A stretch of DNA of 41,085 bases from an uncultured Aminicenantes bacterium. GTDB taxonomy: Bacteria; Acidobacteriota; Aminicenantia; UBA2199. The notes under the pieces are model-generated. The model did not search any database. It was not told the DNA's origin and worked only from the letters and a program-made list of their open reading frames with translations. The translations under genes were made by a program, and so were the position numbers. The stretch is from NCBI GenBank assembly GCA_965195285.1, contig CBDAFS010000057.1:1-41085 (forward strand). The letters run 5' to 3'. Of the stretch, positions 8,302-29,979 are shown in pieces (within the stretch, counting starts at the first letter, position 1; each line of letters starts with the position of its first letter).

Positions 8302-8676
8302 CTAACTTTTCCATAAACCGTGCAAATTACAATACTCACGGGCGGTTACATTGGTGGCTTCAATTTTAAAAATGGCTTCCGGCTTATCACCGGGATTCAA
8401 AAACTGCCGGTAGGCCTGACCATCAACCATCAATTCAATCCACTCGATATAATGGGCCTCTTCCATAGGATGGGCCACACTGCCAACACTGACTTTGTAA
8501 CCGTCTGAGATTTTCTCAATTACCGGCACATGTTTTTCGGTTGCCGCATCAACCGTATTTTCTTTCAACAGGGTCATGGGCTGGCCGCAACAAACCAGTT
8601 CTCCGCCTCCCCCGTGAATCACTTCAACGATATTCCCACAGATTTCACATTTGTAAACCTCTAAACGTTTGGCCAT
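8302..8676 (-). CDS. dfx: Desulfoferrodoxin (2Fe superoxide reductase)
   Basis: CEICGN...CCG desulforedoxin domain; [24 protein letters not shown]. Confidence 0.97.
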
Positions 8677-8724
8677 TGTATTCCTCCTTAGATCTCAAAA
8701 TATCTGATATGTTTTTTATCGTTA

Positions 8725-9240
8725 CTAAACATATTCGGGTTCATAATATTCTTTTGGATGCTGACAGGACGGACATATCTCCGGAGGTTCTGTTCCCTCA
8801 TGGACATATCCGCATTTGCTGCAGATCCATTTTACCGGCTTTTCCCGTTTGTAGAGAGTACCCGATTCCAACATATCCAGTAATCTTTTATAGCGATCGC
8901 GGTGCTGGGCCTCAACTTTGGCGATCTGAGTAAACAACCGGGCTGCATCGGATTGGCCTTCTTCTTCAGCCTCCCTGGCAAATGTCGGATACATCTCGAT
9001 GGTTTCGTAATGCTCCCCCTCGATGGCGGCCAGAAGGTTTGCCCGGGTATCTCCGATTCCCTTCAGCAGCTTGAACTCATCTTTAGCATGCTGCTTTTCA
9101 TTCAAGGCTGTTTCTTCAAAAAATTTGGCAACATAATGATATCCCTCTTTCCGGGCCACCTTGGCGTAATAATCATACTTATTTCTTGCTTGTGACTCGC
9201 CGGCAAAAGCGGTTTTCAGGTTTTGTTCGGTTTTTGACAT
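8725..9240 (-). CDS. rbr: Rubrerythrin
   Basis: AFAGESQA, EKQH and EAQH diiron motifs, C-terminal CSKC...CPSC; ATG 9240 with AAGGAG. Confidence 0.95.
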   Translation of the reverse strand: MSKTEQNLKTAFAGESQARNKYDYYAKVARKEGYHYVAKFFEETALNEKQHAKDEFKLLKGIGDTRANLLAAIEGEHYETIEMYPTFAREAEEEGQSDAARLFTQIAKVEAQHRDRYKRLLDMLESGTLYKREKPVKWICSKCGYVHEGTEPPEICPSCQHPKEYYEPEYV

Positions 9241-9251
9241 TTTCAAACTCC

Positions 9252-9728
9252 TTAATTGGTATTGGTTTTTAATTTCGATAACATGACAAAGTGTTTTCTT
9301 TCTTCATCCACAATTTTATCGATCCGATGGTGTTTGTTTTCCGGGACGATATTTTTGATCTCCTGATAATACAGTATGGAACTCACTTCTGCATCAATGG
9401 CAAAATCAAGGGCTGAAGCGACATCGGAAATTTCTTCCAGTTTTTGATCGAACTCTTTCTGGCTGAAAATAATATTGTCGGCATAACTACGAAGATAAGT
9501 AAAGTATTCACCCGGGTAACTTTCGTGGGGCTCATAGCTCTCAAGGGTTGAGAGTATTTCTTCATAAATCTTTTTATGCCCGACTTCTTCGTTGGCCAGA
9601 AAAGTAAACAATTCCTTGGTCGAGGGTTCCTCGAATTTTTCAACCATTTTGCGGTAAAATTTTTCACCGTTTTCTTCAATTCTAATTGCCAGTTGAAAAA
9701 CTTCACTGGCATCAAACATAATTCCCAT
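9252..9728 (-). CDS. Ferritin-like (rubrerythrin-domain) protein
   Basis: AIRIEENG-x-x-FY, EEVGH, EERKH; ATG 9728 with AAGGAG. Confidence 0.85.
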   Translation of the reverse strand: MGIMFDASEVFQLAIRIEENGEKFYRKMVEKFEEPSTKELFTFLANEEVGHKKIYEEILSTLESYEPHESYPGEYFTYLRSYADNIIFSQKEFDQKLEEISDVASALDFAIDAEVSSILYYQEIKNIVPENKHHRIDKIVDEERKHFVMLSKLKTNTN

Positions 9729-9744
9729 TTTTAACTCCTTTTGT

Positions 9745-10923
9745 TTATATAGTTTCTTGATGTTTGGTAGCGATGGTGTCCGCCAGTTTATCAAGTAACC
9801 CATAATCTGCTGCTTTGGGGTGTCCCTTGATCAATACCGGATCCAGAAATTCCGCTTTCAGGTTACTCAGGCTATTTTGAATCATTTCAAGGGTCCTGCC
9901 CCCCCAGCCATATGAGCCGACAACGGTGGCAAATTTCAATTTGGGTTTCAGAACATTCACCAGGGTCGCCGCATAAACCGCTGCCGGATGTGGGCCGGTC
10001 AAAACCGTGGGCGTCCCTAAAATCAGAGTGGCACTGTCAACCAGTGACATGGCCAACTGTCCCAGATCGGTTTTGATCAAATTAAAGAACTTCACTGAAA
10101 TTCCCTTTTCCATGATTCTTTCCATCAGGTAAAACATCATTTTTTCCGTACTGCCGTGCATGGATACATAGGCAATAACCACCTGGTTCTCAACTTTATC
10201 CGATACCCAGTTCCGGTAGGCATCCAGTATAATCTTGGAGTCCGAATAGACCGGACCATGGCTGGGGGCAATCATTTCAAAATCAAGAGCCTCTATTTTC
10301 TCGATGTTTTTTTTCACCACACCTCTAAAGGGCATCATGATTTCGGCATAATACCTTTTGGCATCCTCAATCACCTTGGCTGGATTCCGGACAAACAGAT
10401 CGCTGGTAGCCAGATGAGATCCGAAAAAATCACAGGAAAAAAGAATTTTATCCTCCGGTAAAAAGGTACACATGGTTTCCGGCCAGTGAACCCAGGGGGT
10501 AAAAATAAATTTCAGGGTTTTATCCCCCAGGGACAGCACATCCCCATCCGAAACGGTTTGAAAGCTGGTTTCCGGGATCTCCATCAGGTCCATTAAAAAT
10601 AACCTGCATTTTTCATTGGCAATCACTTTTGCTTCCGGGTAGATTTCCAACAGATCGGGTATGGAACCGGAATGGTCCTGTTCGGCATGGTTGGAAACCA
10701 GGTAATCAATTTTGGTTACATTCAGTTTTTTCAAGGTAGAGATCAGTTCTTCGGTCTTGGGTGGATCAACCGTATCGATCAGAGCGGTTTTTTCACTCCC
10801 CCTGATCAAATATGAATTATAACTGGTTCCGTCAGGCAGGGGGATCAGCTCATCAAAAAGTCTTCGGTCCCAATCCCTGGAGCCAACCGAAAAAATTCTA
10901 TCTTTTATCCGCTGTACACCCAT
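9745..10923 (-). CDS. fprA: Flavodiiron protein (FprA/rubredoxin:oxygen oxidoreductase)
   Basis: GTSYNSYL, HAEQDHSG, HWPE, SCDFFG, PSHG, then flavodoxin domain with SMHGST and GSYGWGG. Confidence 0.95.
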   Translation of the reverse strand: MGVQRIKDRIFSVGSRDWDRRLFDELIPLPDGTSYNSYLIRGSEKTALIDTVDPPKTEELISTLKKLNVTKIDYLVSNHAEQDHSGSIPDLLEIYPEAKVIANEKCRLFLMDLMEIPETSFQTVSDGDVLSLGDKTLKFIFTPWVHWPETMCTFLPEDKILFSCDFFGSHLATSDLFVRNPAKVIEDAKRYYAEIMMPFRGVVKKNIEKIEALDFEMIAPSHGPVYSDSKIILDAYRNWVSDKVENQVVIAYVSMHGSTEKMMFYLMERIMEKGISVKFFNLIKTDLGQLAMSLVDSATLILGTPTVLTGPHPAAVYAATLVNVLKPKLKFATVVGSYGWGGRTLEMIQNSLSNLKAEFLDPVLIKGHPKAADYGLLDKLADTIATKHQETI

Positions 10924-11081
10924 TACTCTTCCTCAAACATGTCTTTTCCGACTCCACACAAGGGGCAAACCCAGTCATCGGGTATGTTCTCGAAGGCAGT
11001 CCCCGGTTTAATACCTGAATCCGGATCACCGATTTCGGGATCATAAACATAACCACAGGCTGTGCATACGTACTTTTTCAT
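10923..11081 (-). CDS. rub: Rubredoxin (52 aa, absent from the ORF track)
   Basis: Hand translation [52 protein letters not shown]; AAGGAG RBS; TAATG overlap with the fprA start. Confidence 0.97.
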
Positions 11082-11110
11082 ATTTTCTCTCCTTTTGAAC
11101 TTTTGTTATA

Positions 11111-11566
11111 TTATAAAACATTTTTAGTTTTTTTTTCCTTATTTTTTAAACAATTTCGGCAAGTGCCCCTGAATTGAACCTGGACTTCCTCAATCTTATG
11201 TCCCTGAATGGAATTTTTTTGATACAGTGGAATCTTCAAATCGACATCGATGATTCGATTGCATTGATGGCAATAAAGATGGGCATGGGGGAACTCTATG
11301 ATATCATACCGTGTCTCCGATTTATTGGTTTTAATGCTGGACAAGATTCCTTTTCGCACAAATATATTTACATTATTGTATACAGTTGTTCGTGAAAGGG
11401 TAGGAATACTTCGAGAAATATTTTTAAAAATAGTTTCCGCAGACGGATGATTTTTGTTTTTCATTATGTACTCCAGTATGAGCAATCTCTGGTATGACGG
11501 CTTGATGCCTTTCGAACACAACAAATCCCTGAACTCACCATGAACACCATAATGTCTGTCCGTCAT
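11111..11566 (-). CDS. perR: Fur-family regulator, probably PerR
   Basis: QRL-x-I, HPSAE, S-x-x-TVYN, HAH-x-x-CHQC, CRNC; heads a peroxide/superoxide-defence operon; GGAGGT RBS supports ATG 11566 or 11569. Confidence 0.8.
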   Translation of the reverse strand: MTDRHYGVHGEFRDLLCSKGIKPSYQRLLILEYIMKNKNHPSAETIFKNISRSIPTLSRTTVYNNVNIFVRKGILSSIKTNKSETRYDIIEFPHAHLYCHQCNRIIDVDLKIPLYQKNSIQGHKIEEVQVQFRGTCRNCLKNKEKKTKNVL

Positions 11567-11600
11567 CATAAACCTCCGACATCGGTAAAATAAATACCAC

Positions 11601-11639
11601 AATATTGTAATAAGTACAATCTAAACTTATTACAATATT
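11601..11639. promoter_or_regulatory. Probable PerR/Fur operator: perfect 15-bp inverted repeat with 9-bp spacer
   Basis: AATATTGTAATAAGT 11601-11615 and ACTTATTACAATATT 11625-11639; contains near 7-1-7 TTGTAAT-A-AGTACAA; covers the predicted +1. Confidence 0.65.
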
Positions 11640-11669: not shown

Positions 11670-11717
11670 CACCTATTTCATTTTCCAGGTTTGTGGTATT
11701 ACCGGAATATTATCAAA

Positions 11718-11746
11718 TTGACAAAGCCTCGAAATGTTGATATGGT
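11718..11746 (+). promoter_or_regulatory. Sigma70-type promoter of the rseC-like gene
   Basis: TTGACA-17 nt-TATGGT with TGn extension. Confidence 0.55.
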
Positions 11747-11771
11747 TATTCCAATCGGATTTTGCATAAAA

Positions 11772-12209
11772 ATGAATACTGAAGAGGGAACTGTCACCAA
11801 AGTAGAGGGGCATAAGGCCTTTGTTATGGTGGCCAGAAGCGAGATGTGTGATGGTTGTGGAAGCCGGGGAATTTGCCATACCCTCGGAGGAGGCAAAAAT
11901 ATGGAAGCCGAAGCCATCAACACGGTTCAAGCCAAGGCGGGTGACCGGGTTCATCTGTCCATAAAACCGGGAATTTTGTGGAAGATTTCCCTCCTGTTCT
12001 ATATGATTCCGGTTATCGCTCTCGTTTCGGGAGCCCTGATTGGAATCGAAATAGGACCCAGATTGAATTTTGACCCCGAATTATTTTCTGCTTTTCTGAG
12101 TATTTCTTTTGCCGCCCTATCCTATATTATCATAAGATTTATTGCCAACCGCTTAAAGGAAAAAAGAGATTTTATGCCGGAAGTGGTCAGAATTGTCAAC
12201 CCCGGATGA
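11772..12209 (+). CDS. rseC: RseC/MucC family membrane protein
   Basis: EEG-x-V, CDGC-x4-C, GD-x-V, YMIP and two C-terminal TM helices; start moved to ATG 11772. Confidence 0.85.
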   Translation: MNTEEGTVTKVEGHKAFVMVARSEMCDGCGSRGICHTLGGGKNMEAEAINTVQAKAGDRVHLSIKPGILWKISLLFYMIPVIALVSGALIGIEIGPRLNFDPELFSAFLSISFAALSYIIIRFIANRLKEKRDFMPEVVRIVNPG

Positions 12210-12499: not shown

Positions 12500-13045
12500 T
12501 CAGTAAACCAAAGCCCGTTCGATCAAACTGGCACAACTGCGACAAAACGAACAGGACTTCACATCGGTATCGATTATATTATTGGAGGGATACATGATGC
12601 AATTTTTATCACTGCAATGGAGCAGTCCAAACAGATGTGAAATTTCATGTATGACCTCTTTTTCACATCTCGATAGAAACAGGGTTTCATCCTCTGCCAG
12701 ACCGTAATATTCCTGACCAAGGCGATGCAATGAAATGAGCGCACAACACCCCCCCAACTGAGCCTCTCCAAAAAAACAGGAGAAGATGGGTGAGTAGAGA
12801 TCCAATTCGGCAATGGCCACTAACTTGAATATTTTCCCGGGCAGGCATTCATATAATTGCTTAAGCAGTTTTGTGGAATTGTATTTTCCCCCAAAGACCG
12901 GTTCGGGTACGCAGCCGATTAAATCCTGACAGGGGATCAGGTGAGTATTGAGGTTAAATGTGGTTTTTATGGACTGGCTGATATAATCCAAAAGCGAATC
13001 ATCTATATCACCAATCGGAACCAGGGTGATTTTTTTTTCTATCAT
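12500..13045 (-). CDS. Archaemetzincin-family (M54) zinc metalloprotease
   Basis: FGEA, HEISHLFGLLHC (HExxHxxGxxHC), CIM Met-turn, FCRSC; start directly abuts the upstream stop. Confidence 0.9.
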   Translation of the reverse strand: MIEKKITLVPIGDIDDSLLDYISQSIKTTFNLNTHLIPCQDLIGCVPEPVFGGKYNSTKLLKQLYECLPGKIFKLVAIAELDLYSPIFSCFFGEAQLGGCCALISLHRLGQEYYGLAEDETLFLSRCEKEVIHEISHLFGLLHCSDKNCIMYPSNNIIDTDVKSCSFCRSCASLIERALVY

Positions 13046-14392
13046 TCATTTTTTAATTTTATATTTTTTTATTTTGTTATACAGGGTGGCCCGGTCAATA
13101 CCCAGTTCTGCTGCGGATTTTGAAATATTCCAGCCATTATCCTCTAAAATCCGGGAGATGTGGCTTTTTTCAGATTCATCCAGGGTTCGGGGAGTCGATT
13201 CTTCCTTGCCCTTTTGGACAACTTCGGTCAAATCATTGGATATGATTTCATCTGTCTTGCTGACCACCACCGCTCGTTCAATCACATTCTCCAGCTCCCG
13301 GATATTTCCCGGCCAATGATAACCGATCAACACCTTCATGGCCTCACCGGAGATTCCATTGATTTTTTTCGAATTGGCCATGGTATATTTATGCAAAAAA
13401 TGATTGGCCAGCAGCGGTATATCTTCTCTTCTTTCTCTCAAGGGAGGGACATTGATGGGCACCACATTCAGACGATAATATAAATCCTCACGAAACTTGC
13501 CCTCCCGGGCATCTTCCTCAAGATTCCGGTGGGTTGCAGATATAATTCTGATATCCACTTTGATGGGTTGGGTACTGCCCAGACGGTAGATATGTTTTTC
13601 TTGCAAAACCCTCAATAGAGCGACCTGGGTCTTGGGACTGATATCCCCGATTTCATCCAGGAACAGGGTTCCCCCGCTGGCCATCTCAATCCGACCCTTT
13701 CGACTGTGCTCGGCACCGGTAAACGCACCTTTTTCATAGCCAAACAATTCACTCTCAAGGAGAGTTTCGGGTAAGGCACCGCAGCTTAATGCAACCAGAG
13801 GACCGTATTTTCGTTTGCTGTTTGCATGAATGGCCCTGGCAATCAATTCTTTTCCGGTCCCGCTTTCTCCCCTGATCATCACTACAGCCTCTGAGTCGGC
13901 AACGGTTTTGATCAATTCAAATATCTCCTCCATTTTCTTGCTCCTGCCAATTATTTCATCAAAGCCGTACTTTTTTTCCAGTTCCTTCTTCAGCAGAATA
14001 TTCTCTTTTTCCAGCATCTTATATCTGATTGCCCTTTCAATTACCTGACTGACGCTTTCCGGATCAAAGGGTTTTACAATATAATCAAAAGCACCGTCTT
14101 TCATGGCCTGGACCGCCGTATCTACAGAGGCATAGGCCGTCATGACCAGTATGGGAAAGTCCGGATAAATTTCTTTGCTTAATTTCAACAATTCTATGCC
14201 GTCCATACCCGGCATTTTTATATCCACCACAGCCAGATCAAAGGTGTCGGTTTTTATCTTTTCCAGGGCATCATGCCCGTTATCAATGGTATCGACCTGG
14301 TATCCCTCTTCCAGGAGCCAGTTGCCCATGGAATCACGAACAATCATGTCATCATCAACAACCAGGATTTTGATGCTATTTTTTAAAGACAT
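13046..14392 (-). CDS. Sigma54-dependent response regulator (NtrC/AtoC/ZraR family)
   Basis: Receiver (VDDD, DIKMP, KPF), [38 protein letters not shown], Fis-type HTH. Confidence 0.96.
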
Positions 14393-14404
14393 TTTCCCTC
14401 ACCG

Positions 14405-16018
14405 CTATTCGTTTATTTCCCCAACCGGAAGCATAATGAAGAAGGTGGTCCCCTTACCCACTTCACTCTCCACCTTTATGGTGCCCTTGTGTTCCTGAAT
14501 GATGCCGTAAGCCACAAATAATCCCAGGCCGGTGCCTTTCTCAGCCTCTTTGGTGGAAAAAAACGGATCAAAAATATACTTGAGATTTTTGCGGGGAATG
14601 CCATCTCCACTATCTTTCAACACGATTTCAACCTTCTTGCCATGGGCACTCTTGGTTTCAATGGAAAGCTTTCCTCCCTTGGGCATGGCTTCCTGGGCAT
14701 TGATGAGCAAGGCTATAAGGGTTTGCTGAATCTGTTTGAAGTCACAGTATATGTTGGGAATCCCATCCTGTAGTTTCAAATCCAGTTCAATATTCTGGAT
14801 CCGGATCTTATTTGACAGCAGCACCAGACTGTTTCTGATGATACTGTTAATATCGGATTTTCTGATTTCCAGTTTCGATTGCCTGGAAAAAACCAGCAGG
14901 TTTTTCACCATACCACCCAGCCTCTCGATCTCATCTCCCATCAGGTTCAAATACTTTTTAAAATCGGTAAGGGTACTCCCCTTGACTTCATCACCGGATG
15001 CTTTTTTTAACATCAATTTAATATAGGTTAAGATACCCTGTAAAGGATTGTTAATCTCATGGGCAACCGAGGATGCCAACACTCCTAATGAAGCCATCTT
15101 TTCCGATTGAATCAGCTGTTCCCGGGCCACTCTTAATTTATTGGTCCGTTCCTCCACTTTTTTTTCCAATTCAATATTCCAGGACTGGATTTCTTGATTG
15201 GCTTTTCTTAAATCCTTGATCATCTTATTGAATGAATTGGCCAGATACCCGATCTCATCATGGGTGTTTACCTGGGTATCAACGGTCAGATTTCCGGTGG
15301 AAACCTGCTGGGTGGCTCTGACCAGTATTTTTACTGGTTTTGTTACCAATCGATGAATAAATAATGTCAATATACCCGAAACAGATAATATGGCAATCAA
15401 TGTGAAATAAATGATAATTCTGCGATTGGAACTATAGTCATTATCCACATCAACCAGAGACATTCCAATATCCAGAACCCCCAGAACCCTCTGTTTTTTC
15501 GGATGAGCATGACATGTGGCATTGTAACAATCCGGTTCATTATAAATGGGTGTGATCATGGCTAATACCCGGTGATCTTCGGATTTAAATATCCGGCTCC
15601 GTTCGGAAGTGGACAATCGCTCCAGGGGTTTTTCCACCGCATGACAAACATAACAGGCTTCGGCATTCTTATCCACGAAATGGTTCATTTCCTTTTTATT
15701 GGTGGAGAACATGATGTTCCCCTCTTTATTAAATATGCGTACAAATTCAATACCCTCTTGAATCCCCTTGGTTTCAATCATCCGGTGCAATCCTTCGCGA
15801 TTGTTTATAAGCATATCATACCTGGTGCTGGTGGTAACAGTATTGCTATAGGTGCCGGCTGCACGAAATACTTCAGCTATGAGTTGTTTATTTTGATTGG
15901 TCAGGATGATATAGAAAAAAATTCCGAAAATTATTACCGATACTGCAACTATGGCAAATATCAGTTTGGAATTGATTGTCTTAAACATATCCAGCTTAAT
16001 CCCGGTATGCCCAATCAT
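14405..16018 (-). CDS. Membrane sensor histidine kinase with extracytoplasmic heme-c motifs and HAMP
   Basis: Two TM helices flanking CYVCH and CYNATCH; HAMP (DEIG-x-LA-x-SFN-x-M); AHEINNPL; DSGDG, FDPFFSTK, GTGLGL; start may be ATG 15988. Confidence 0.93.
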   Translation of the reverse strand: MIGHTGIKLDMFKTINSKLIFAIVAVSVIIFGIFFYIILTNQNKQLIAEVFRAAGTYSNTVTTSTRYDMLINNREGLHRMIETKGIQEGIEFVRIFNKEGNIMFSTNKKEMNHFVDKNAEACYVCHAVEKPLERLSTSERSRIFKSEDHRVLAMITPIYNEPDCYNATCHAHPKKQRVLGVLDIGMSLVDVDNDYSSNRRIIIYFTLIAILSVSGILTLFIHRLVTKPVKILVRATQQVSTGNLTVDTQVNTHDEIGYLANSFNKMIKDLRKANQEIQSWNIELEKKVEERTNKLRVAREQLIQSEKMASLGVLASSVAHEINNPLQGILTYIKLMLKKASGDEVKGSTLTDFKKYLNLMGDEIERLGGMVKNLLVFSRQSKLEIRKSDINSIIRNSLVLLSNKIRIQNIELDLKLQDGIPNIYCDFKQIQQTLIALLINAQEAMPKGGKLSIETKSAHGKKVEIVLKDSGDGIPRKNLKYIFDPFFSTKEAEKGTGLGLFVAYGIIQEHKGTIKVESEVGKGTTFFIMLPVGEINE

Positions 16019-16040
16019 TAAATAGACAAGACACAGAAAT

Positions 16041-16069
16041 ATTTTATAATATCAGGCTGGGTTTTTCAA
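16041..16069 (-). promoter_or_regulatory. Internal sigma70-type promoter for kinase-regulator-protease
   Basis: TTGAAA-17 nt-TAAAAT on minus strand. Confidence 0.5.
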
Positions 16070-16115
16070 CAAAAAAATGGAGGGGTCAACTATTTGAAGC
16101 CCGAGTAAAAGCCTT

Positions 16116-17048
16116 TTATCGGGTATACAAATGTTTTTTGACCAGTTCATTCCACTTTTCTCTGGACAGGTTTTTGCTGATATCAGCAGCCACGACTGCT
16201 CCATCATGAAAGGTGACACCGGTCTCGGATTGAATACTCTGGCTTAGCAAATTGGCCTCTTCCTCCATCCAGGCAGTGGCTTCCTTATCCTTCAAAAGGT
16301 TCTTCAAATTTTTCGCTACGCTACTGACATCCATGGTGACAAACCATCCATCGGTATAGGGTTTTTCGACAGCCAGGCTGGCATCATCCAGCAGTTTTTG
16401 ATTGACCGAATCAACCACACCGGAAATGGGTGAGAAAAATTCCAGATCACCATGGTCATGGTTTACTATCCAGGAATACTCTTCCAGTTCCAGATTTTTT
16501 CCCACGGCCGGTAATTCGATCTTATTGATTTTACCGATTATTCTTCTGGCAAAATCATCAATTCCAATCCTGAACTTTCCATTTCTTTCCAGATAAACCC
16601 AGGTGTGATTGCGAAAATAATAAAGTCTTTCCGGTAAATAAAACCCCGCCACTTTGGGAAGTTGCTCCATTTCCCCGACAAATGACGGTTGAATCCGGTC
16701 CTGCATCATCTGGTCAAATGAGCATTCCCCGCAACGGAAACTATTGGGACAGATTTTATGAGACACCTCGCCACTGATCATATACCGGCATTTTCTCTGA
16801 TCTGCAGGCAGGTGGCGGAATTCTTCCATCCACTCGACAACCGCTTTCTTGTTACTGGCTGTCGGTTTATGATCATGCAAATTCTGCTTGGTCTGTTGGG
16901 CCCGGTTGGACATGGCCAAATCAAACTCACAGGTACTGCATTGATAGTGGTTGGTGCATAATTTGTAGGAAACCACCCCGGCTTCCATCCATATACACTT
17001 CCGTTCTCCGGTCGGAATCACCTTCAATCCTCTTTTTTGTTCATTCAT
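16116..17048 (-). CDS. GcvH-fold protein lacking the lipoyl-lysine, with two N-terminal Cys4 repeats
   Basis: HTWV, IGIDDFA, IELP-x-VG, SPISG-x-V-x-x-VN and PY-x-x-GW match glycine-cleavage H; ESVK position reads NHDH; two C-x12-C-x5-C-x2-C-x-FD repeats; AGGAGG RBS. Confidence 0.85.
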   Translation of the reverse strand: MNEQKRGLKVIPTGERKCIWMEAGVVSYKLCTNHYQCSTCEFDLAMSNRAQQTKQNLHDHKPTASNKKAVVEWMEEFRHLPADQRKCRYMISGEVSHKICPNSFRCGECSFDQMMQDRIQPSFVGEMEQLPKVAGFYLPERLYYFRNHTWVYLERNGKFRIGIDDFARRIIGKINKIELPAVGKNLELEEYSWIVNHDHGDLEFFSPISGVVDSVNQKLLDDASLAVEKPYTDGWFVTMDVSSVAKNLKNLLKDKEATAWMEEEANLLSQSIQSETGVTFHDGAVVAADISKNLSREKWNELVKKHLYTR

Positions 17049-17095
17049 TTTATGCCTCCTGTAGAGAATTATTCTTCATGTCCATACATATCTCA

Positions 17096-17112
17096 AGCAA
17101 ATCTTATGCCAA
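17096..17112 (-). promoter_or_regulatory. Sigma54 (-24/-12) promoter
   Basis: TTGGCATAAGATTTGCT matches TGGCAC-N5-TTGCW with exact GG-N10-GC spacing, about 48 bp upstream of the GcvH-like start. Confidence 0.8.
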
Positions 17113-17259
17113 CTTCCGGATTTTTATTTCATTCTTCTCGTATTATTTTTGTAAAATCCGAAACGGCTTTATTATTAAGCATTTCCAATACAAAAAATAT
17201 TTTAACAGACATATTTTTCAGAAGAAGGAATTTGATTAATCGGATCAGAATACCCCCAG

Positions 17260-17300
17260 CTGTTGAATTTCTCAACACCGACTGTTGAATTTCTCAACAC
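17260..17300. promoter_or_regulatory. Tandem palindromic upstream activator sequences (bEBP enhancer)
   Basis: CTGTTGAATTTCTCAACAC at 17260-17278 and 17282-17300, identical, 22-bp period; each is TGTTGA-N5-TCAACA (TGT-N11-ACA). Confidence 0.75.
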
Positions 17301-17329: not shown

Positions 17330-18322
17330 TTAAAATCTTTTGGTAAAGATATGGCAATAGGGAGTTCCATTCTTTTTGAAGTAATAACTCTGGTGATAAT
17401 CCTCGGCTTTCCAAAACACCAATGCCTCGGTCACCCGGGTAACCACCCGGTATTCCTTGGATTTCAGGATATCAATTAATTTCAAAGCGGTTTGTTTTTG
17501 TTTATCGTTCAGATAAAAAATCTCCGACCGGTACTGCTCACCGATATCAGGTCCCTGACGATTCAACTGGGTGGGATCATGGGTTTCAAAAAACAGCTTG
17601 GCCAGTTCCTCGTAACTTACGATCTCAGGAACAAAGACAACTTCCACGGCTTCGGCATGGCCGGTGGTGCCGATGCATACTTCTTTATAAGTTGGATTTT
17701 TGGTATGTCCCCCGGTAAAACCGACGGTGGTTTCCAGCACCCCCCTGCGCCTCTGCATATGGTATTCCGTTCCCCAGAAACATCCGGAGGCAAAAATGGC
17801 CCGTTCGGTTTTTTCCAGGGACACAAAATTTAAAGAAATGGAATTGACACAATGCCGGATATTTTTGACGGTGAATTTCTCCCCTTTAAAAACATGACCC
17901 AGGTGAGCCCTGCAGCGATTACACAAGATTTCGGTTCGCAGTCCATCGGTATCCGGTAACCGCTTTACCGCATTGTAAATCTCATCATCAAAACTGGGCC
18001 AGCCACAACCCGAATCAAACTTATCCTCGGATTTGTAAAGCGGGGCATCACACCGTTTGCATATATAATACCCTTTGGCTTTGTGGTCATGGTATATACC
18101 GGTGAAGGGCCTCTCCGTTGCTTTATGTACAATCACCCGTTCCTCTTCCGGAGTGAGTGGGTTATATTTCATGGCTTTCGTATCCTCCTTACTCGATTTG
18201 CTCTGGCTCTGAACCTGAAACACCTGGACGAATACAAAAACCGAAATCATGAGTCCGATGGTGGACCACAATGGTTTATGGGAAAAAAATCCGGTTTTCT
18301 CACCATTTCGTCTTTCTGGCAT
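17330..18322 (-). CDS. msrAB: Bifunctional methionine sulfoxide reductase, MsrB-MsrA order, with N-terminal signal/anchor
   Basis: TERPFTG, CKRC, SGCGWPSF, CNRC, HLGHVF, RHCVNS; then GCFWG, GHAEAV, QYRS, AEDYHQ. Confidence 0.95.
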   Translation of the reverse strand: MPERRNGEKTGFFSHKPLWSTIGLMISVFVFVQVFQVQSQSKSSKEDTKAMKYNPLTPEEERVIVHKATERPFTGIYHDHKAKGYYICKRCDAPLYKSEDKFDSGCGWPSFDDEIYNAVKRLPDTDGLRTEILCNRCRAHLGHVFKGEKFTVKNIRHCVNSISLNFVSLEKTERAIFASGCFWGTEYHMQRRRGVLETTVGFTGGHTKNPTYKEVCIGTTGHAEAVEVVFVPEIVSYEELAKLFFETHDPTQLNRQGPDIGEQYRSEIFYLNDKQKQTALKLIDILKSKEYRVVTRVTEALVFWKAEDYHQSYYFKKNGTPYCHIFTKRF

Positions 18323-18378: not shown

Positions 18379-21300
18379 TTAGAGATCGCACCGTAGGCAA
18401 CGCTTGGCATCATTGACACAGGATTTTTCAGACAATCCCAGTTCAACCTCATCAAAACCTTTGATTCGCTTCAATGCACTCAAGCAGGGCATCTTATCTC
18501 TCTTCAATTTCTCGAGTTCTTCATCGGGAACCTCAATGGGCTCTATCAGTCTTTTGGGCCGCACCGATCTGAAGTGCCAGGGTATTTTGATACCATTGAA
18601 ATAGCCGTTTATGGCAGCGGCTGCCCGCTGACCGGCAGCAATGGCTTCAATAATGGTTGCAGGTCCGGTAACCGCATCTCCTCCGGCAAAAATTCCCGGG
18701 ATACTGGTTTCCAGGGTATTGGGGTCGACCTCAAAGGTATTCCAGGCCGTGATATCAAAATTCATATCTTTTAACAACTCAGCCAGGTCGGGTTCCTGGC
18801 TGATGGCCGGGATAATGACATCGCAGGAGATAATAAACTCAGAGCCTTCAACCGGAACCGGGCGTCTTCTGCCACTGGCATCGGGTTTCCCCAGTTCAGT
18901 CCGGACACATTCCAAACCGGTCACCCGATTCTTGGCCCCGATAATTCGTTTGGGGGCAACCAAGACATGCAGTTTCACACCTTCTTCCTCAGCCGCATCA
19001 ATTTCTTCTTTAAAAGCCGGCATTTCAAATCTGGATCGACGGTAGGCAATGCTGACCTCCGAGACACCGATTCTAACGGCAGTTCGGGCTGCATCTACCG
19101 CTGAATTACCTCCACCGATCACGATTATTTTATCCCCCGGTTTTTTTCGGTTACCAAAATTCACATTCTGCAGGAAATCAATGCTATCGATAAAACCTTC
19201 ATATTTGTCCTCGCCGTAAACACCGAGTTTTCTACCCTTGAAGGCTCCGACAGCCAAAAATACGACATCATAACCCTGTTTTTTTAATTGATTTATGGTT
19301 ATGTCTTTTCCAATTCGGGTACTGGTTTTTATTTCGATGCCCAGGGCAGCAATGGCATCTATTTCGGCTTTGATCACATTCCGGGGCAGACGATACTCTG
19401 GTATGCCGGCAACCATCATACCACCGGGAATCGGCAGGGCTTCGAAAACCGTTATCGTATAGCCCATTTGTCTTAAATAAAAAGCTGCGGTAAGTCCGGC
19501 CGGCCCGGCTCCGACAATCGCCACCTTCTCGTTTTTTGTAACGGGTAAAGGTTTTATATGTTTTGCTCTTTCCAACTCCAGGTCGGCAACAAATCGCTTT
19601 TGATACATAATGGCAATCGGTTCATCCACCTCTCCCCGGGTGCATTCAAATTCACATGAATGGGTGCAGGCTCGCCCGCAAATCGAGGGGAAGGGATTGT
19701 CTTCGATGATGAGGTCCAGGGCATCCTCGTACCGTTTATGAGCAATCAGCGAGACATAACTGGGAACATCAATACCGGCCGGGCAGGCATTCTGGCAGGG
19801 AGCGGGTGTGAGCCGCTTGCAAACCATGGCCGGGCATCTTTTCTCAATGATATGGGCTTCATACTCTTCCCTGAAATATTTGATGGTGGTCAGAACCGGA
19901 TTCGGGGCCGTCTTGCCCAGTCCGCAAAGGGAAGCATCAATGATGGTATCACTGAGACGTTGCAGGGTGTCAAGGTCCTCCATTTTCCCGTTTCCATCTG
20001 AAATTCTCTCCAATATTTCCAGCATGACCTTGGTTCCGACCCGGCATGGTGTACATTTCCCGCAACTTTCTTCTGCTGTAAAATGCAGAAAAAATTTGGC
20101 GATATCCACCATACAACTGGTCTCATCCATGATCACCATTCCACCGGAACCCATTATGGCCCCGGTCTCATTTATGGAATCATAATCAATGGGAATATCA
20201 AACATTCTTTCAGGAATACAACCACCCGAAGGACCGCCCAACTGGGCAGCTTTTATCTGATTGCCCTGAACGCCGCCGCCACCGATATCATAGATGGCCT
20301 TCCTCAAAGACATACCCATGGGAACCTCAATGAGTCCGGTGTATCGGACTTTTCCGGCCAAGGCAAAGACCTTGGTGCCTTTACTTTTGTCGGTTCCGAT
20401 GGCCGCATAGGCTTCAGGTGAATCCACAATGATTCGAGGAAGATTGGCCAGGGTCTCCACATTGTTGACCACGGTGGGTTTTTTATACAATCCTTTTATG
20501 GGCGGGAAGGGGGGTTTGGGCCTGGGCATGCCTCGCTGATCTTCTATGGAAGCAATCAAAGCGGTTTCTTCACCGCATACGAATGCCCCGGCTCCTTCCC
20601 TGACACTGATATCGAAGGAGAAATCACTGTCCAGAATATTATTGCCCAAAAAATTTTTCTCTCTGGCATCGGCCAGGGCCTTGTCCAGGGTTTTCAGGGC
20701 CAAGGGATATTCGGCCCGACAGTAAATGAAGCCTTCGGTTGCCCCAATGGCATAACCGGCGATAATCATTCCCTCCAGTACCGAGTGGGGATCGCCTTCC
20801 AACAGGGAGCGATCCATGAAGGCTCCCGGATCACCTTCATCGGCATTGCAAATCACATATTTTTTGTCTGATTTGACATTCCGGCAGAAGGTCCATTTTT
20901 TTGCCGTGGGAAAACCAGCACCCCCACGGCCCCGGATACCGGATTTTCCAACCTCTTCAATAACTTCTTCCGGGGTCATCTTCAGTATTTTTATTGTGGC
21001 CTGGTAACCACCGGTTTCCAGGTAATCTTCAATACTGAAAGGATCAATATTTCCGCAATTCTTCAGGGCAATTTTTACCTGATCCTTGACCACACTATAT
21101 TCATCTATGAAGGGTACACCCTCATAGGCCTGCTGTTCCTTACTTTCGGGATGATATTGATACAATACGTTTTCTTTAACAACCTGTCCGTTTTTAACTG
21201 TTTTCTCGACAATGGCAGGAACCGATTCGGGAAGAATATTTCCATAGGTCAGCCGGGTTCTTCCATCCAATTCCAATTCAGCAACAACCTCCTGGGAACA

Positions 21301-21435
21301 CAGTCCGATACATCCAGTTGACCCTATTTTAACAGACAGTTTGCTATTTTCAATTTCAGCCAGGAATGCATTGTAAACATCCATTCCACCTGCCGCTCTT
21401 CCGCAGGTTGCCATTCCGATTTTTATAACAGACAT
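18379..21435 (-). CDS. NuoF/HydB-like FMN-NAD(H) subunit fused to a GltD/NfnB-like FAD-NADP(H) module
   Basis: GRGGAGFPT, NADEGDPGAFMDR, GGPSGG, ESCGKCTPC, EAH-x5-CPAMVC; then PCQNACPAGIDVP, GAGPAG, GGGNSA-x-DAAR, YRR, FAGGD, RCLRC; start ATG 21435 or GTG 21447. Confidence 0.9.
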   Translation of the reverse strand: MSVIKIGMATCGRAAGGMDVYNAFLAEIENSKLSVKIGSTGCIGLCSQEVVAELELDGRTRLTYGNILPESVPAIVEKTVKNGQVVKENVLYQYHPESKEQQAYEGVPFIDEYSVVKDQVKIALKNCGNIDPFSIEDYLETGGYQATIKILKMTPEEVIEEVGKSGIRGRGGAGFPTAKKWTFCRNVKSDKKYVICNADEGDPGAFMDRSLLEGDPHSVLEGMIIAGYAIGATEGFIYCRAEYPLALKTLDKALADAREKNFLGNNILDSDFSFDISVREGAGAFVCGEETALIASIEDQRGMPRPKPPFPPIKGLYKKPTVVNNVETLANLPRIIVDSPEAYAAIGTDKSKGTKVFALAGKVRYTGLIEVPMGMSLRKAIYDIGGGGVQGNQIKAAQLGGPSGGCIPERMFDIPIDYDSINETGAIMGSGGMVIMDETSCMVDIAKFFLHFTAEESCGKCTPCRVGTKVMLEILERISDGNGKMEDLDTLQRLSDTIIDASLCGLGKTAPNPVLTTIKYFREEYEAHIIEKRCPAMVCKRLTPAPCQNACPAGIDVPSYVSLIAHKRYEDALDLIIEDNPFPSICGRACTHSCEFECTRGEVDEPIAIMYQKRFVADLELERAKHIKPLPVTKNEKVAIVGAGPAGLTAAFYLRQMGYTITVFEALPIPGGMMVAGIPEYRLPRNVIKAEIDAIAALGIEIKTSTRIGKDITINQLKKQGYDVVFLAVGAFKGRKLGVYGEDKYEGFIDSIDFLQNVNFGNRKKPGDKIIVIGGGNSAVDAARTAVRIGVSEVSIAYRRSRFEMPAFKEEIDAAEEEGVKLHVLVAPKRIIGAKNRVTGLECVRTELGKPDASGRRRPVPVEGSEFIISCDVIIPAISQEPDLAELLKDMNFDITAWNTFEVDPNTLETSIPGIFAGGDAVTGPATIIEAIAAGQRAAAAINGYFNGIKIPWHFRSVRPKRLIEPIEVPDEELEKLKRDKMPCLSALKRIKGFDEVELGLSEKSCVNDAKRCLRCDL

Positions 21436-21449
21436 TCTTCTAACCACCC

Positions 21450-21959
21450 CTATTTATCTTCATTTTCAGAAGCCTCTCGACAGGACTCGATAACTGCTTT
21501 TACCTGATCAATATCAAGTTTACCGTAAACTTTGTCATTCACCATCATGGCCGGTGCCAGTGCGCAGCAACCGAGACAGGCCACATTCTGGACCGTAAAG
21601 AGCCGATCCTCGGTGGTTTCATTATCCTCATCCAGTTTCAGATAGGATCTGAGCTTCTTGCCCAGAACTTTGGAACCGCCCACATGACAGGCCGTTCCAT
21701 TGCAAGCTTTTATAATATTCTTCCCCACCGGGATAGTGCTGAACTGTGAATAAAAGGTGATGACTCCATAAATATGACTCTCGGCAACATGCATTCTTTC
21801 GGAAAGATACCTAATGGCAAATTCGGGCACATAACCGAATTCAGATTGAATTTTCTGCAAAAGAATCATCAGAGAATTTGCTATAGAATATTTTTTAAAA
21901 ATTTCCCCGACCACTTCCATTTCTTCATTTGACAAGGATACAGTCTCTTGCGTCTGCAT
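21450..21959 (-). CDS. NuoE/HydC-like [2Fe-2S] subunit
   Basis: V-x-TFY, CNGTACH...CLGCC. Confidence 0.92.
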   Translation of the reverse strand: MQTQETVSLSNEEMEVVGEIFKKYSIANSLMILLQKIQSEFGYVPEFAIRYLSERMHVAESHIYGVITFYSQFSTIPVGKNIIKACNGTACHVGGSKVLGKKLRSYLKLDEDNETTEDRLFTVQNVACLGCCALAPAMMVNDKVYGKLDIDQVKAVIESCREASENEDK

Positions 21960-21961
21960 GA

Positions 21962-23968
21962 TTACTCCGCCTCCTTGAACCTCTTTTTGACAAGATCCTG
22001 TAAATCATGGCAATACTCTGCCAGCACTTTTTGATAATCCGTCCTGATAAATCCTGTTGGGGTCTTCACCATATCTTTCCAGACAATCTCTGTTTTCCGG
22101 TTTAATTTCTGACCCTCTTCTTGTAACGAATCATAAGTAATATCCTGGAAACAGGAAAATTTCTTTGCAATTTTCTGCTCCCAGATTTCCCTGCTGGTGG
22201 AGAAATCCCATTTTAAACCCATTCTCTTGGCTAACTCATTGAAAATCCACCCGGATGGTTTGGCTTCTCCCGGGGCATTCACGACCCGGCGGATCAAATT
22301 GATTCGAAAATCAGAACCAACGGTTGTTCCTTCATGTTCCACCCACACCGAGGCCGGTAAAACCAGGTCTGCTTTTTCCTGTGCCACAGAAGGAAAGATA
22401 TCCTGAACCACCAGAAATTCCACTGAATCGGGAAGCGGGCTTTGATGATTCATGGTGTACAATAATTTCAATTTTCCCATATCCAGATCATTCCGGGGCA
22501 ACAAACCCAACAAATAAGCTCCCGCTGTATTGTTTTCTCGGCTTATGGAGAAAATTTTCAGGCCTTCTCTTTGGTTTATTCCGGAGATATCTGTATCCGG
22601 ATCATGAAACAAAAGGGTTTCACCGTTTATTTCCTTTTCTATATCGGCTAGATTTTCCAGCCGGACCCGGGCAAACTTGGACAGTTCGGTATTCTCCATA
22701 TTCACGGTAACCAGTTTGGCACCGTTCAGGACCGCCTGTTTGACAAATGTGGCCGCAACCGGATTATCCCGGGTCATATCCATATTGACGACCACAATAG
22801 TCTGGGCGTTTTTTACATCCTCGTAATCCAGACCCATAAAGGCCGGTGATTCAAAATGAAACACATTATCCCCGGACAGGGCCTCATCAAAAAACTTTTT
22901 TACTTGAAACAGATCTTCATTCTTCTCTTTGGTGGATACCAGACATCCGATCGCTTCGGGACCGTATTTGTCTTTGACTTCATTGATCTTGGCAGCCAGC
23001 CAATCCAGAGCTGCTTCCCAGGTTGTTTCAACCAGTTTCCCCTTCTGCCGGATCATGGGTTTGGTCAGCCGGTCTTCGGAGTGAATAAAATCAAAGGCAA
23101 AACGACCTTTAAAGCACAGTCTGCCTCGATTGGGCAGGCCATCTTCCACACCGTCAACCTTCACGATCTCATTATCCTTTACAAACAGGTCAAGCTGACA
23201 TCCCACCCCGCAATAATGACAGGTAGTCCTGACATGCTTTATATCCCACATCCGGTAATTGAATCGATTCCGCTTTTCAAAGAGGGCACCCACCGGACAA
23301 CTCTGGATACATTCACCGCAATACACACAATCCGAATCAGGCAGGGTGAGGTCCCCCCTGACCACAATCTTGGCAATATTGCCCCGGTAGCCGTGGGACA
23401 GGGCATTGTTCACCTGGATTTCACAGCAGGCCTGGACACATCGACCGCACAGAATACATCGTCCAAAATCCCTACCGATCAGAAGATCATCATACTCGAG
23501 TGGATATTTGGTGGGAATCCGGTCCATTGTTCTCTCAGTTACTCGATATTTATAGGCCAGGGCCTGCAATTCACATTGACCATAAGCCACACAGATATCA
23601 TCCGCCTGGTCATACTCAACCACATCTTTCTGAAAATCCGACCATTCCTGGGGAAAATTCCCCCGGATCGAACAGTTATGATTCCCGGAAATGAGTAAGA
23701 GTTCTATGACCATCTGGCGTGCTTTGACAATTCGGGTCGATTCGGTAAAGATTTCCATACCATCGGCAGCAGGAGAGGAACAGGATGCAATCGGTCCCGG
23801 TGCCCCCTTGACCTCAACAATACAGACCCGGCAGGCTCCGGTGGGGGGGGCCCCCTTTAAATGACAGAGGGTGGGGATATCAATTCCATTTCCCCTGGCC
23901 ACTTCCAGAATGGTTTCCCCGGATTCAAACTCACATTGTTTTCCGTTTATTGTGATTATATTAGCCAT
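21962..23968 (-). CDS. NuoG/FdhA-like Fe-S subunit with truncated molybdopterin-oxidoreductase domain
   Basis: IPTLC...GACRVC [2Fe-2S]; H-x-C...C...C cluster; CILCGRC and CVYCGEC; TTCHYCGVGC...LCFKG; no catalytic Cys/Sec-His segment and no C-terminal MGD-binding domain recognised. Confidence 0.85.
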   Translation of the reverse strand: MANIITINGKQCEFESGETILEVARGNGIDIPTLCHLKGAPPTGACRVCIVEVKGAPGPIASCSSPAADGMEIFTESTRIVKARQMVIELLLISGNHNCSIRGNFPQEWSDFQKDVVEYDQADDICVAYGQCELQALAYKYRVTERTMDRIPTKYPLEYDDLLIGRDFGRCILCGRCVQACCEIQVNNALSHGYRGNIAKIVVRGDLTLPDSDCVYCGECIQSCPVGALFEKRNRFNYRMWDIKHVRTTCHYCGVGCQLDLFVKDNEIVKVDGVEDGLPNRGRLCFKGRFAFDFIHSEDRLTKPMIRQKGKLVETTWEAALDWLAAKINEVKDKYGPEAIGCLVSTKEKNEDLFQVKKFFDEALSGDNVFHFESPAFMGLDYEDVKNAQTIVVVNMDMTRDNPVAATFVKQAVLNGAKLVTVNMENTELSKFARVRLENLADIEKEINGETLLFHDPDTDISGINQREGLKIFSISRENNTAGAYLLGLLPRNDLDMGKLKLLYTMNHQSPLPDSVEFLVVQDIFPSVAQEKADLVLPASVWVEHEGTTVGSDFRINLIRRVVNAPGEAKPSGWIFNELAKRMGLKWDFSTSREIWEQKIAKKFSCFQDITYDSLQEEGQKLNRKTEIVWKDMVKTPTGFIRTDYQKVLAEYCHDLQDLVKKRFKEAE

Positions 23969-23991
23969 TTTACTCTTGCTGGATCAATCCC

Positions 23992-26001: not shown

Positions 26002-26014
26002 GATCTTCTCTCTG

Positions 26015-26614
26015 TCATTTCATCATATACGCCTGAAGCGAATTATCAATCCCCAAAAATCCGTAAAAGGCCAGGGCCATCAGGCCTGCCATTACCAGGG
26101 CAATGGCCGTATCCTGAAGGGCTCGCGGAATAAAGGATATCTCAAACCTTCCCCGGATCCCGGCAAAAAGAATCAAAGCCAGCGTAAATCCGGCCCCTGA
26201 AAATAGTGCATAAAAAAGACTCTGCAAAAAATTAAATTCATTATTGATGCAAAGGACCGCCACACCCAGAATGGCGCAATTGGTGGTGATGAGGGGCAGA
26301 AAAATCCCCAATGCCTTATACAGGGCAGGAGCCAGTTTTTTCAGGAACATTTCGATCAGCTGAACCAGGGCTGCAATCACCAGAATAAAGACAACGGTCT
26401 GGAGATATTCAATCTGCAGGATTACCAGGATATAATGATACACAAACCAGGTGATACTGGTGGCAAAGGTCATAACGAAAATCACGGCCATGCCCATTCC
26501 GGTGGCGGTTTCCATTTTTTTGGAAACCCCCATAAAGGGACAATTCCCCAAATACTGGGCCAGAAGAATGTTTTTTACCAAAATAGCATTGATGGCCAGG
26601 ATAATATATTCCAT
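26015..26614 (-). CDS. rnfA: Rnf complex subunit A
   Basis: YLGNCPF, LGIFLPLITTNCAILG. Confidence 0.95.
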   Translation of the reverse strand: MEYIILAINAILVKNILLAQYLGNCPFMGVSKKMETATGMGMAVIFVMTFATSITWFVYHYILVILQIEYLQTVVFILVIAALVQLIEMFLKKLAPALYKALGIFLPLITTNCAILGVAVLCINNEFNFLQSLFYALFSGAGFTLALILFAGIRGRFEISFIPRALQDTAIALVMAGLMALAFYGFLGIDNSLQAYMMK

Positions 26615-26626
26615 TTAAAACTCCAT

Positions 26627-27220
26627 TTATTTTTTGGGAAATAAATTCATGATACCCAGAATCAGCCCCAGGCAAATAAATGCCCCGGGTGCACTCACCA
26701 TAAAAGCAAAGGGTTCAAATGAATCCCACATCACCTGCATTCCCAAAAATGTACCCTTGCCCAGAATTTCCCGGATTGAGCTGATCAGTATCAGGGAGAG
26801 GGTAAAACCCAGCCCGATTCCCAGTCCATCAGCAGCAGAGAGATAAATCGGATTTTTGGAGGCAAAGGCCTCGGCCCGTCCCAGGATAATACAATTCACC
26901 ACAATCAGATTTATAAACAAACCGAGCTGCTGGGAAATTGAAAAAAAGTAAGCCTTCATCACCAGCTCAACAATCACCACAAAAGTGGCAATCACAACAA
27001 TATAAGAAGCAATCCTGACTTTCTTGGGGATCAGGTTTTTTATGGAAGATATGATGACATTTGAGAAAAACAGAACAAAGGTGGTGCTCAGACCCATCCC
27101 GATCCCATTTTCCACAGCCGTGGTCACGGCCAGGATCGGACACAATCCCAGAACCAGTTTAAAGGGGGGAAGTATTTCCCAGAATCCTTTTAAAAATTCC
27201 TGTGAAATCGTTTTATTCAT
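26627..27220 (-). CDS. rnfE: Rnf complex subunit E
   Basis: LGLCP, LIVVNCIILGRAEAFA. Confidence 0.95.
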   Translation of the reverse strand: MNKTISQEFLKGFWEILPPFKLVLGLCPILAVTTAVENGIGMGLSTTFVLFFSNVIISSIKNLIPKKVRIASYIVVIATFVVIVELVMKAYFFSISQQLGLFINLIVVNCIILGRAEAFASKNPIYLSAADGLGIGLGFTLSLILISSIREILGKGTFLGMQVMWDSFEPFAFMVSAPGAFICLGLILGIMNLFPKK

Positions 27221-29974: not shown

Positions 29975-29979
29975 CAGTT

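Follow-up and report, generated by a model that had tools for sequence, protein, structure and literature searches.

What is a protein that the databases name glycine cleavage H doing beside a histidine kinase, a sigma54 activator and a zinc protease? The question is raised by contig CBDAFS010000057.1 of an uncultured Aminicenantes bacterium, taken here as one stretch of 41,085 nucleotides ("the window" throughout), which carries four genes of interest, all on the minus strand:

16116..17048, minus strand: H-like protein gene (310 residues, soluble; two Cys4 repeats, a GcvH fold and a C-terminal tail)
14405..16018, minus strand: histidine kinase gene (537 residues; membrane protein)
13046..14392, minus strand: NtrC-type sigma54 activator gene (448 residues; receiver, AAA+ and Fis-type helix-turn-helix (HTH) domains)
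12500..13045, minus strand: archaemetzincin (M54) gene (181 residues; cytoplasmic)

The open reading frame (ORF) list and profile searches identify these as a GcvH-domain protein, a HAMP histidine kinase, a sigma54 activator and an M54 peptidase, and the coordinates confirm the arrangement given in a preliminary description of this DNA, with 12 bp between kinase and regulator and 0 bp between regulator and protease. The N-termini of homologs indicate that the kinase probably starts at its second ATG (15988). A Ca. Aminicenantes metagenome-assembled genome (MAG) holds the closest relative that carries a name (93%). RNA data consist of contigs from one study, in which stretches without coverage prove nothing; one contig of 1039 bases from an RNA library covers 15920-16958 across the H-like/kinase junction, but it does not reveal the strand or the start, nor whether the two genes share one transcript.

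Our data demonstrate that this module is real and conserved, a variant without a description in the open-access literature searched, whose two-component core is of a known kind. What stays constant is the kinase, the activator, an archaemetzincin with its motifs intact, and an H-fold that lacks the lipoyl site and ends in a Gly-motif tail of ~70 residues; the heme and Cys-rich parts are swappable inputs outside that core. The interpretation that we favor, tentatively and with confidence a little short of even, is a two-component system with an induced accessory connector that links redox complexes to the kinase and is reset by proteolysis of the connector's tail.

Whether the four genes belong together was left by the preliminary description to a search of other genomes, and they do recur together in several phyla. 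A search with the H-like protein gave 20 loci (L001-L020) in MAGs that carry the names Aminicenantes, Neomarinimicrobiota, Calditrichaceae and Deltaproteobacteria, among others. Another 42 come from the phylum to which a deltaproteobacterial MAG belongs and another 20 from that of the host, 82 in total, with four further regions around short canonical-type H genes set aside as controls. By our own profile labels, which also underlie the counts of kinases and redox-complex genes, the complete set is found in 14/20, 27/42 and 9/20 loci (50/82), and the kinase is the most constant neighbor of the H-like gene (67/82). Among 301 unselected genomes of the deltaproteobacterial MAG's phylum, 90 have an H-like match, 115 have M54 and 83 have both, so that M54 is present in 83/90 genomes with an H-like match vs 32/211 without, counts that, as do all our genome counts, treat kin as independent and thereby overstate significance. 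Match positions were listed for 80 genomes, and in 63 of these the H-like and M54 genes lie within 10 kb of each other. The distribution is patchy, and the module was found in none of eight sampled genomes of the host's own family. The order seen in the window, with the H-like gene first, is the minority one; usually kinase, regulator and protease stand before the H-like gene or face it. The H-like gene is often followed by a gene on the opposite strand, which makes it the only product of its promoter there.

The H-like protein itself is composed of the following parts:

16929..16997, minus strand: Cys4 repeat 1, C18-x12-C31-x5-C37-x2-C40 (invariant in a 60-sequence alignment; without a Pfam match)
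16722..16790, minus strand: Cys4 repeat 2, C87-C100-C106-C109 (the one of the two that persists in fusions placing the H-fold after a NuoG-type Fe-S domain)
16314..16637, minus strand: GcvH fold (PF01597, 74.5 bits; Foldseek TM-score 0.93 to the E. coli H-protein)
16119..16331, minus strand: C-terminal tail of ~70 residues (a helix, a flexible D-G loop at residues 282-283, then helices), the proposed region of protease binding and cleavage

Structure prediction and Foldseek place the H-protein fold at about residues 138-263. His199 occupies the position of the lipoyl lysine, and family members have Lys in that column in only 1/60 and 8/87 cases, vs 3/4 short control H-proteins; the protein is thus predicted not to be lipoylated, as had been proposed. 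The database name would fit a divergent GcvH that happens to adjoin an unrelated two-component system, yet the protein scores below the GcvH family cut-offs (TIGR00527, 75.9 against 115.85; TIGR03077, 41.1 against 144.05; NF045810, 21.7 against 150), a canonical lysine-bearing gcvH is present elsewhere in the host genome, and the linkage is conserved across several phyla. The co-occurrence across genomes, together with the enhancer/promoter counts and the co-distribution of tail and M54 given below, refutes that reading, to which we assign practically no probability.

Another way to read this protein is as a carrier that, similar to LbpA, would pass sulfur or electrons to enzymes of the Hdr type, with the Cys repeats in place of lipoate. 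Hdr neighbors in 22 of the 42 loci from the deltaproteobacterial MAG's phylum agree with it, and H-fold LbpA, reported to act with sHdr, is a precedent (PMC6067878). However, the lysine is rare in the column discussed above, while it is described as strictly conserved in GcvH and LbpA (10.64898/2026.10.01.755906), many members have no Cys repeats, and the H-fold has no conserved cysteine; we consider a carrier role very unlikely. The Cys4 repeats may form a metal or Fe-S site. Their model confidence is low (pLDDT 40-60), and their structure-atlas matches are only to unnamed clusters at 0.79-0.81. They are invariant in close relatives and missing from many other family members, so the "Cys-rich H-fold" of the preliminary description applies to this locus and its close relatives and is not general in the family.

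The feature that does accompany the module is the tail. Most H-like proteins have this C-terminal extension of ~70 residues, which includes a flexible (D/T/S)G(G/A) loop; a PDB sequence search with the tail gave no match. At 50% identity its matches fall into 1614 clusters, a good many of which are fragments, and the H-fold precedes it in 59 of the 62 top matches of at least 190 residues. Among 251 genomes of the host phylum, M54 is present in 52/52 with a tailed H-fold, 1/23 with only tail-less forms and 21/176 with neither, a contrast that reflects few independent events because 18 of the 23 tail-less genomes belong to one family and three probably carry canonical GcvH, which tells against our interpretation. 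Tailed H-fold and M54 lie within 10 kb in 41 of the 52. The tail-less forms inspected are receiver-H-fold fusions that adjoin a kinase, and neither an activator nor a protease accompanies them. Within the host genome, the paralog most similar to the window kinase (44%) adjoins such a receiver-H-fold gene; a locus of this genome (L021:8425-11218) has a paralogous Cache kinase and a receiver-H-fold gene without a tail, both preceded by acetyl-CoA hydrolase-GNAT and DRTGG genes.

The protease is intact by its motifs. In the window it has an intact HExxHxxGxxH motif and a Cys4 zinc finger and no membrane segment. Its family scores lie above one cut-off and just below the other (PF07998, 87.2 with a cut-off of 24.4; NF033823, 135.6 with a cut-off of 145), and a profile comparison gave E 3e-43 to 2X7M. 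The full signature HExxHxxGxxHCx4CxMx17CxxC is intact in 46/46 module proteases, with Glu134 invariant. Twenty M54 genes picked for not adjoining an H-like gene were compared with them in a tree: 17 fall into a group of their own (SH-like support 99%), and the 12 kb fetched for each shows no gene for a sigma54 activator. The other three belong to kinase-activator-protease operons, and their genomes encode a tailed H-like protein at another place. The module proteases are a dedicated subgroup, separate from other bacterial M54s.

Complex prediction, which the preliminary description had proposed for the pairs of the module, gave 0.55 for the protease with the full-length H-like protein vs 0.00 for the best of three controls. 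The runs agree in at least 91% of contacts and the partner's pLDDT is at least 72. The mark used is reached by 116/157 solved and 2/215 mismatched pairs, yet this score falls in the weak band, since scores of at most 0.60 hold only 18 of the solved pairs and both mismatches; moreover the score gives no interface, and our alignments and the zinc lie outside its calibration. Predicted binding does not imply cutting, and an archaemetzincin could be a non-cutting adaptor that acts, with the H-like protein, as co-activator or anti-activator of the sigma54 regulator. Its precedent is Myxococcus CarG, an archaemetzincin homolog described as acting in transcription regulation (PMC3427221, PMC4374960), and the protease gene abuts that of the activator. 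Against this, CarG has Gln for the catalytic Glu that all module proteases keep, and the window protease scores 61.7 in the non-proteolytic family model NF033824, whose cut-off is 250. We regard the adaptor as improbable. The idea that the protease is a modulator or reset thus gains indirect support from the co-distribution and the weak complex prediction, with cleavage itself inferred. One variant was rejected: a protease exposing a C-terminal Gly-Gly for sulfur loading in the style of ThiS/JAMM, as the clade has D-G-A and there is no E1-like neighbor among the recurring clusters.

The candidate control elements of the module are the following:

17283..17299, no strand: distal palindromic enhancer site, TGTTGA-N5-TCAACA (candidate; exact-match search)
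17261..17277, no strand: proximal palindromic enhancer site, TGTTGA-N5-TCAACA (candidate; identical to the distal site)
17096..17112, minus strand: predicted sigma54 -24/-12 promoter (the window's sole exact TGGCA-N6-TTGC match, at 17097-17111)
16041..16069, minus strand: putative internal sigma70 promoter, TTGAAA-17-TAAAAT (weak; its -35 overlaps an enhancer half-site)

The two palindromes are spaced 22 bp, or two helical turns, and account for two of the three exact copies in the 3.28 Mb host genome. Their centers lie 184 and 206 bp upstream of the predicted transcription start (~17085), in agreement with the 180-210 bp first estimated. The third copy (L023:5053-5069) separates a divergent gene pair and lacks a sigma54 match in the 300 bp around it. 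An exact IHF site was looked for before the module genes and not found. The -24/-12 promoter, initially called strong, is conserved, although its pattern alone is not above chance in the window (10 matches at one mismatch or fewer vs 10.07 expected), and its support therefore comes from other loci. A sigma54 site precedes 47/71 leading H-like genes, 0/18 tandem followers and 16/774 other genes, and a palindrome (two mismatches or fewer) 60-260 bp upstream of a sigma54 site precedes 26/71 leading H-like genes vs 0/774 other genes. The palindrome is kept upstream of 20/21 leaders in L001-L020, and the pair is found at 18/21 in close relatives vs 8/50 in distant loci. In later loci (620 kb), three of five pairs sit a short way upstream of an H-like gene. 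When the host genome is scanned with matrices derived from other genomes, the window promoter is the top match, and shuffled sequences yielded 2 and 2 hits, none carrying two sites. The same scan gave a second two-site sigma54 promoter, on contig C9 near 10230-10380 (region L100:5230-15820), before genes for a REC-AsnC protein, NuoE, NuoF, a 1260-residue 2Fe-2S/GltD/molybdopterin protein, a kinase and a sigma54 activator.

The internal sigma70 promoter of the preliminary description fares less well. The motif is present (10/12) and recurs before the kinase in L001, L005 and L013, where its -35 overlaps half or nearly all of a palindrome, but the region's count is at chance (16 found vs 12.3 +/- 4.3 expected) and the motif is not evident in the upstream sequence of seven other loci inspected. 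We would guess that the overlap of sigma70 site and palindrome serves autorepression. The promoter-like stretch 16039-16077 has a diverged look-alike before a 96-residue gene on genome contig C22, which DNA-run contigs put ~23 kb beyond 28900.

What signal the kinase reads is suggested by its sensor, which has two invariant motifs, CxxCH and Cx4-5CHxH:

15641..15655, minus strand: CxxCH motif, residues 122-126 (additional heme-c motif; invariant in 16/16 aligned sensors)
15509..15529, minus strand: Cx4CH motif, residues 164-170 (aligned to the GSU0935 heme site at E 0.008, a weak similarity)

The protein has a transmembrane helix (12-42), a periplasmic sCache_heme-like sensor, a second helix (200-226), HAMP, HisKA (His320) and HATPase domains, and the sensor between the helices is predicted to have a Cache/PDC fold. 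It had no PF11845 match at E 0.01, and a single-sequence PDB search gave none. The motifs point to a sCache_heme family sensor in its two-motif form, although the insertion before the last strand, where the family has its canonical CxxCH, carries Cx4-5CH here and the CxxCH stands elsewhere. Two-motif variants are reported for Gsu0591, Gsu0599, Adeh_2011 and Adeh_3383 (PMC3831638), and signalling-fused members of the family are reported to bind NO (PMC12889525). The host genome encodes rpoN and a cytochrome c assembly gene. The preliminary description's heme-c kinase agrees with the motifs of this locus, where a second Cys/His motif was recognized, but is not general in the family: CxxCH is found in only 18/61 kinase ORFs of the first 66 loci, and the remaining kinases use Cache, PAS with three Cys (10/10 PAS-type module kinases inspected), GAF or Rossmann inputs. 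In a quick tree the window kinase and three Cache kinases form one group with 96% support, which indicates that inputs are swapped on one core. The activator has the receiver Asp57, an AAA+ domain with GAFTGA and a Fis-type HTH, whose recognition helix is common to module activators and missing from the nine genome paralogs listed; it scores below all named-family cut-offs (AtoC, 502.6 of 714). With its kinase, rpoN and the conserved enhancer-promoter arrangement, it is predicted to be of the NtrC type.

The H-fold likewise receives different N-terminal partners: a membrane anchor (in NrfCD-like clusters), a receiver, a periplasmic binding protein with a membrane helix, HdrA-MvhD (L070-L072) and NuoG-type Fe-S domains in nuoE-nuoF operons (L001, L082-L084); in L082-L084 the arrangement is split, with a small Cys-only gene, nuoE, nuoF and then NuoG-Cys4-H-fold. 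The HdrA-MvhD and NuoG-type fusions are also what an accessory subunit or assembly factor of HdrABC/HdrL, NuoEFG/HydABC-like, NrfCD-like and Rnf complexes would show, with the archaemetzincin as a maturation protease that trims the tail, as HycI and HybD trim hydrogenase large subunits. A redox-complex gene (Hdr, NuoEF/GltD, formate-dehydrogenase-like or NrfCD-like) is labelled in 60/82 loci, the second candidate promoter of the genome precedes a NuoE-NuoF-GltD/molybdopterin operon, and the H-like gene leads hdrCB-hdrL, nuoE or nuoEFG, or nrfCD-like operons at many loci, which fits a subunit equally well. The partner complexes, however, are mutually unrelated; the H-like gene is often monocistronic, and 22/82 loci, several of them short, have no redox-complex label; receiver and binding-protein fusions are signalling architectures; and cotranscription joins the protease to kinase and activator rather than to a complex. 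We judge the subunit or maturase explanation unlikely, if the most serious of the alternatives.

Further observations count against a proteolytically reset circuit of the kind we favor. The palindrome is rarer in distant loci (11/50). The one node that unites the module kinases (support 87) is open and takes in five unrelated kinases on long branches as well, and the choice of loci L034-L099 was made by hand, in favor of long contigs and uncommon fusions. In addition, the archaemetzincins of A. fulgidus and M. kandleri, with motifs intact, are reported to have been inactive on test substrates (PMC3427221).

A unifying model for the connector circuit is as follows. The kinase would read a redox or gas signal, here through a periplasmic sensor whose two observed motifs may bind two hemes, and phosphorylate the activator, which by the established mechanism of bacterial enhancer-binding proteins would bind the tandem palindromes and open the sigma54 promoter of the H-like gene. 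Without lipoate, the H-like protein would be a protein-contact connector, a role that we infer for the H-fold from fusions and gene context, with an exchangeable N-terminal input (here Cys4 repeats sensing cytoplasmic redox state) that the H-fold would link to either the kinase-regulator pair or a neighboring electron-transfer complex. The archaemetzincin, made with kinase and activator, is weakly predicted to bind the tail and would probably cut its flexible Gly loop, setting the connector's lifetime and resetting the circuit. In receiver-H-fold fusions phosphorylation could replace transcription plus proteolysis, which would make tail, activator and protease superfluous. The regulon would serve anaerobic energy conservation through Hdr, NuoEFG/HydABC-like, NrfCD-like and Rnf complexes.

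The surroundings of the module offer further observations. Upstream in the window, an operon at 18379-30672 encodes cytochrome c3, rnfCDGEA, RnfB fused to a GltD-like domain, FdhA-like, NuoE and NuoF-GltD proteins, of which the FdhA-like, NuoE and NuoF-GltD genes also flank the module in several other loci. Flanking genes at 8302-11602 and 17330-18322 encode desulfoferrodoxin, two rubrerythrin-family proteins, a flavodiiron protein, PerR-like and MsrBA; these oxidative/nitrosative stress genes fit an NO or redox signal, and no recurrence was seen in other loci. An RseC/MucC gene (11691-12209) is convergent with the module. In L006-L012 and L014 such a gene directly converges on the H-like gene, and in L005 it does so at a distance of one more gene. 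A sensor-less histidine kinase (31211-31909) and a single receiver gene (30816-31202) lie between the hydrogenase and Rnf operons, and a 279-residue ORF (37689-38528) without a Pfam match is among hydrogenase maturation genes. Elsewhere, DRTGG, PHP, HATPase and [FeFe]-hydrogenase-like genes adjoin the module in L003, L004, L016, L018 and L020 (Neomarinimicrobiota and deltaproteobacterial MAGs), and MetV/MetF, CooC and acetyl-CoA synthase genes stand beside the Hdr-linked module in L042, L043, L046, L047, L049, L052 and L070-L072, suggesting control of the electron-transfer branch of the Wood-Ljungdahl pathway.

No description of an H-fold connector with tail and dedicated archaemetzincin was found in the open-access literature, subscription papers not being covered, so that the preliminary description's statement that it knew of no functional account of the four-gene module holds within that scope; a cross-phylum sigma54 regulon paper lacks gcvH terms in its main text and 11 supplements (PMC12316311). 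It is possible, and we hold this more loosely than the circuit itself, that the tailed lipoate-free H-fold, with more than 1,600 clusters, is an unrecognized signalling domain wiring electron-bifurcating and quinone-linked complexes of anaerobes directly to one kinase subfamily, that its tail with the Gly loop would be the first substrate of physiological relevance for any bacterial archaemetzincin, and that a proteolytically reset redox circuit controls energy conservation across several phyla. Archaemetzincins have solved structures and no known natural substrate, and our analysis names a candidate partner and loop. A large family named glycine cleavage H that cannot carry lipoate affects metabolic reconstructions of uncultured anaerobes. 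The regulation of Hdr, HydABC-like and Rnf complexes in sulfate reducers, syntrophs and acidobacteria is little known, and a predicted activator, its site and its promoters are supplied here. The natural substrates of AmzA archaemetzincins were stated to be unknown as of 2012 (PMC3427221), and activity on casein is reported only in vitro (PMC4681839).

The module resembles several known systems in part. Like NtrB/NtrC-family sigma54 systems, of which AtoSC and ZraSR are the best NCBIfam matches, it has a HAMP-HisKA-HATPase kinase, a REC-AAA+-HTH regulator with GAFTGA and a tandem palindromic enhancer ~200 bp from a -24/-12 promoter; unlike them, it has a dedicated protease, an H-fold target and a sensor domain exchanged between lineages. 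In E. coli CpxAR-CpxP-DegP, the accessory protein CpxP is induced by the two-component system, acts back on it and is cleared by the protease DegP; this circuit logic is shared, without homology, and the module's accessory protein and protease are cytoplasmic and its output is predicted to be sigma54-dependent. AmzA of M. kandleri (2X7M) and A. fulgidus (3ZVS/4AXQ) has the same full zinc-protease signature, whereas the module subgroup is tied to an H-fold partner, and CarG, which binds CarD, lacks the catalytic Glu of a module protease that is intact by motif. With GcvH, LbpA (sHdr) and GcvH-L the H-like protein shares the H-protein fold, as quantified above for the E. coli protein, and with LbpA also Hdr neighbors, but it has no lipoyl lysine and has instead N-terminal input modules and a tail without a PDB match. 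The sCache_heme sensors (DUF3365/Tll0287; GSU0935, GSU0582) share the periplasmic Cache/PDC fold and the position of the heme motif, although the module sensor has Cx4-5CH at that site and an extra CxxCH, and the similarity is weak. In OrpR of Desulfovibrio vulgaris, redox gates sigma54 activation through a Cys-PAS [4Fe-4S] site (PMC8359166). PAS-type module kinases likewise combine a three-Cys PAS with a predicted sigma54 output, whereas OrpR is one-component, has no protease or H-fold partner, and spaces its cysteines by x8 and x3, vs ~x10 and x6 in the module.

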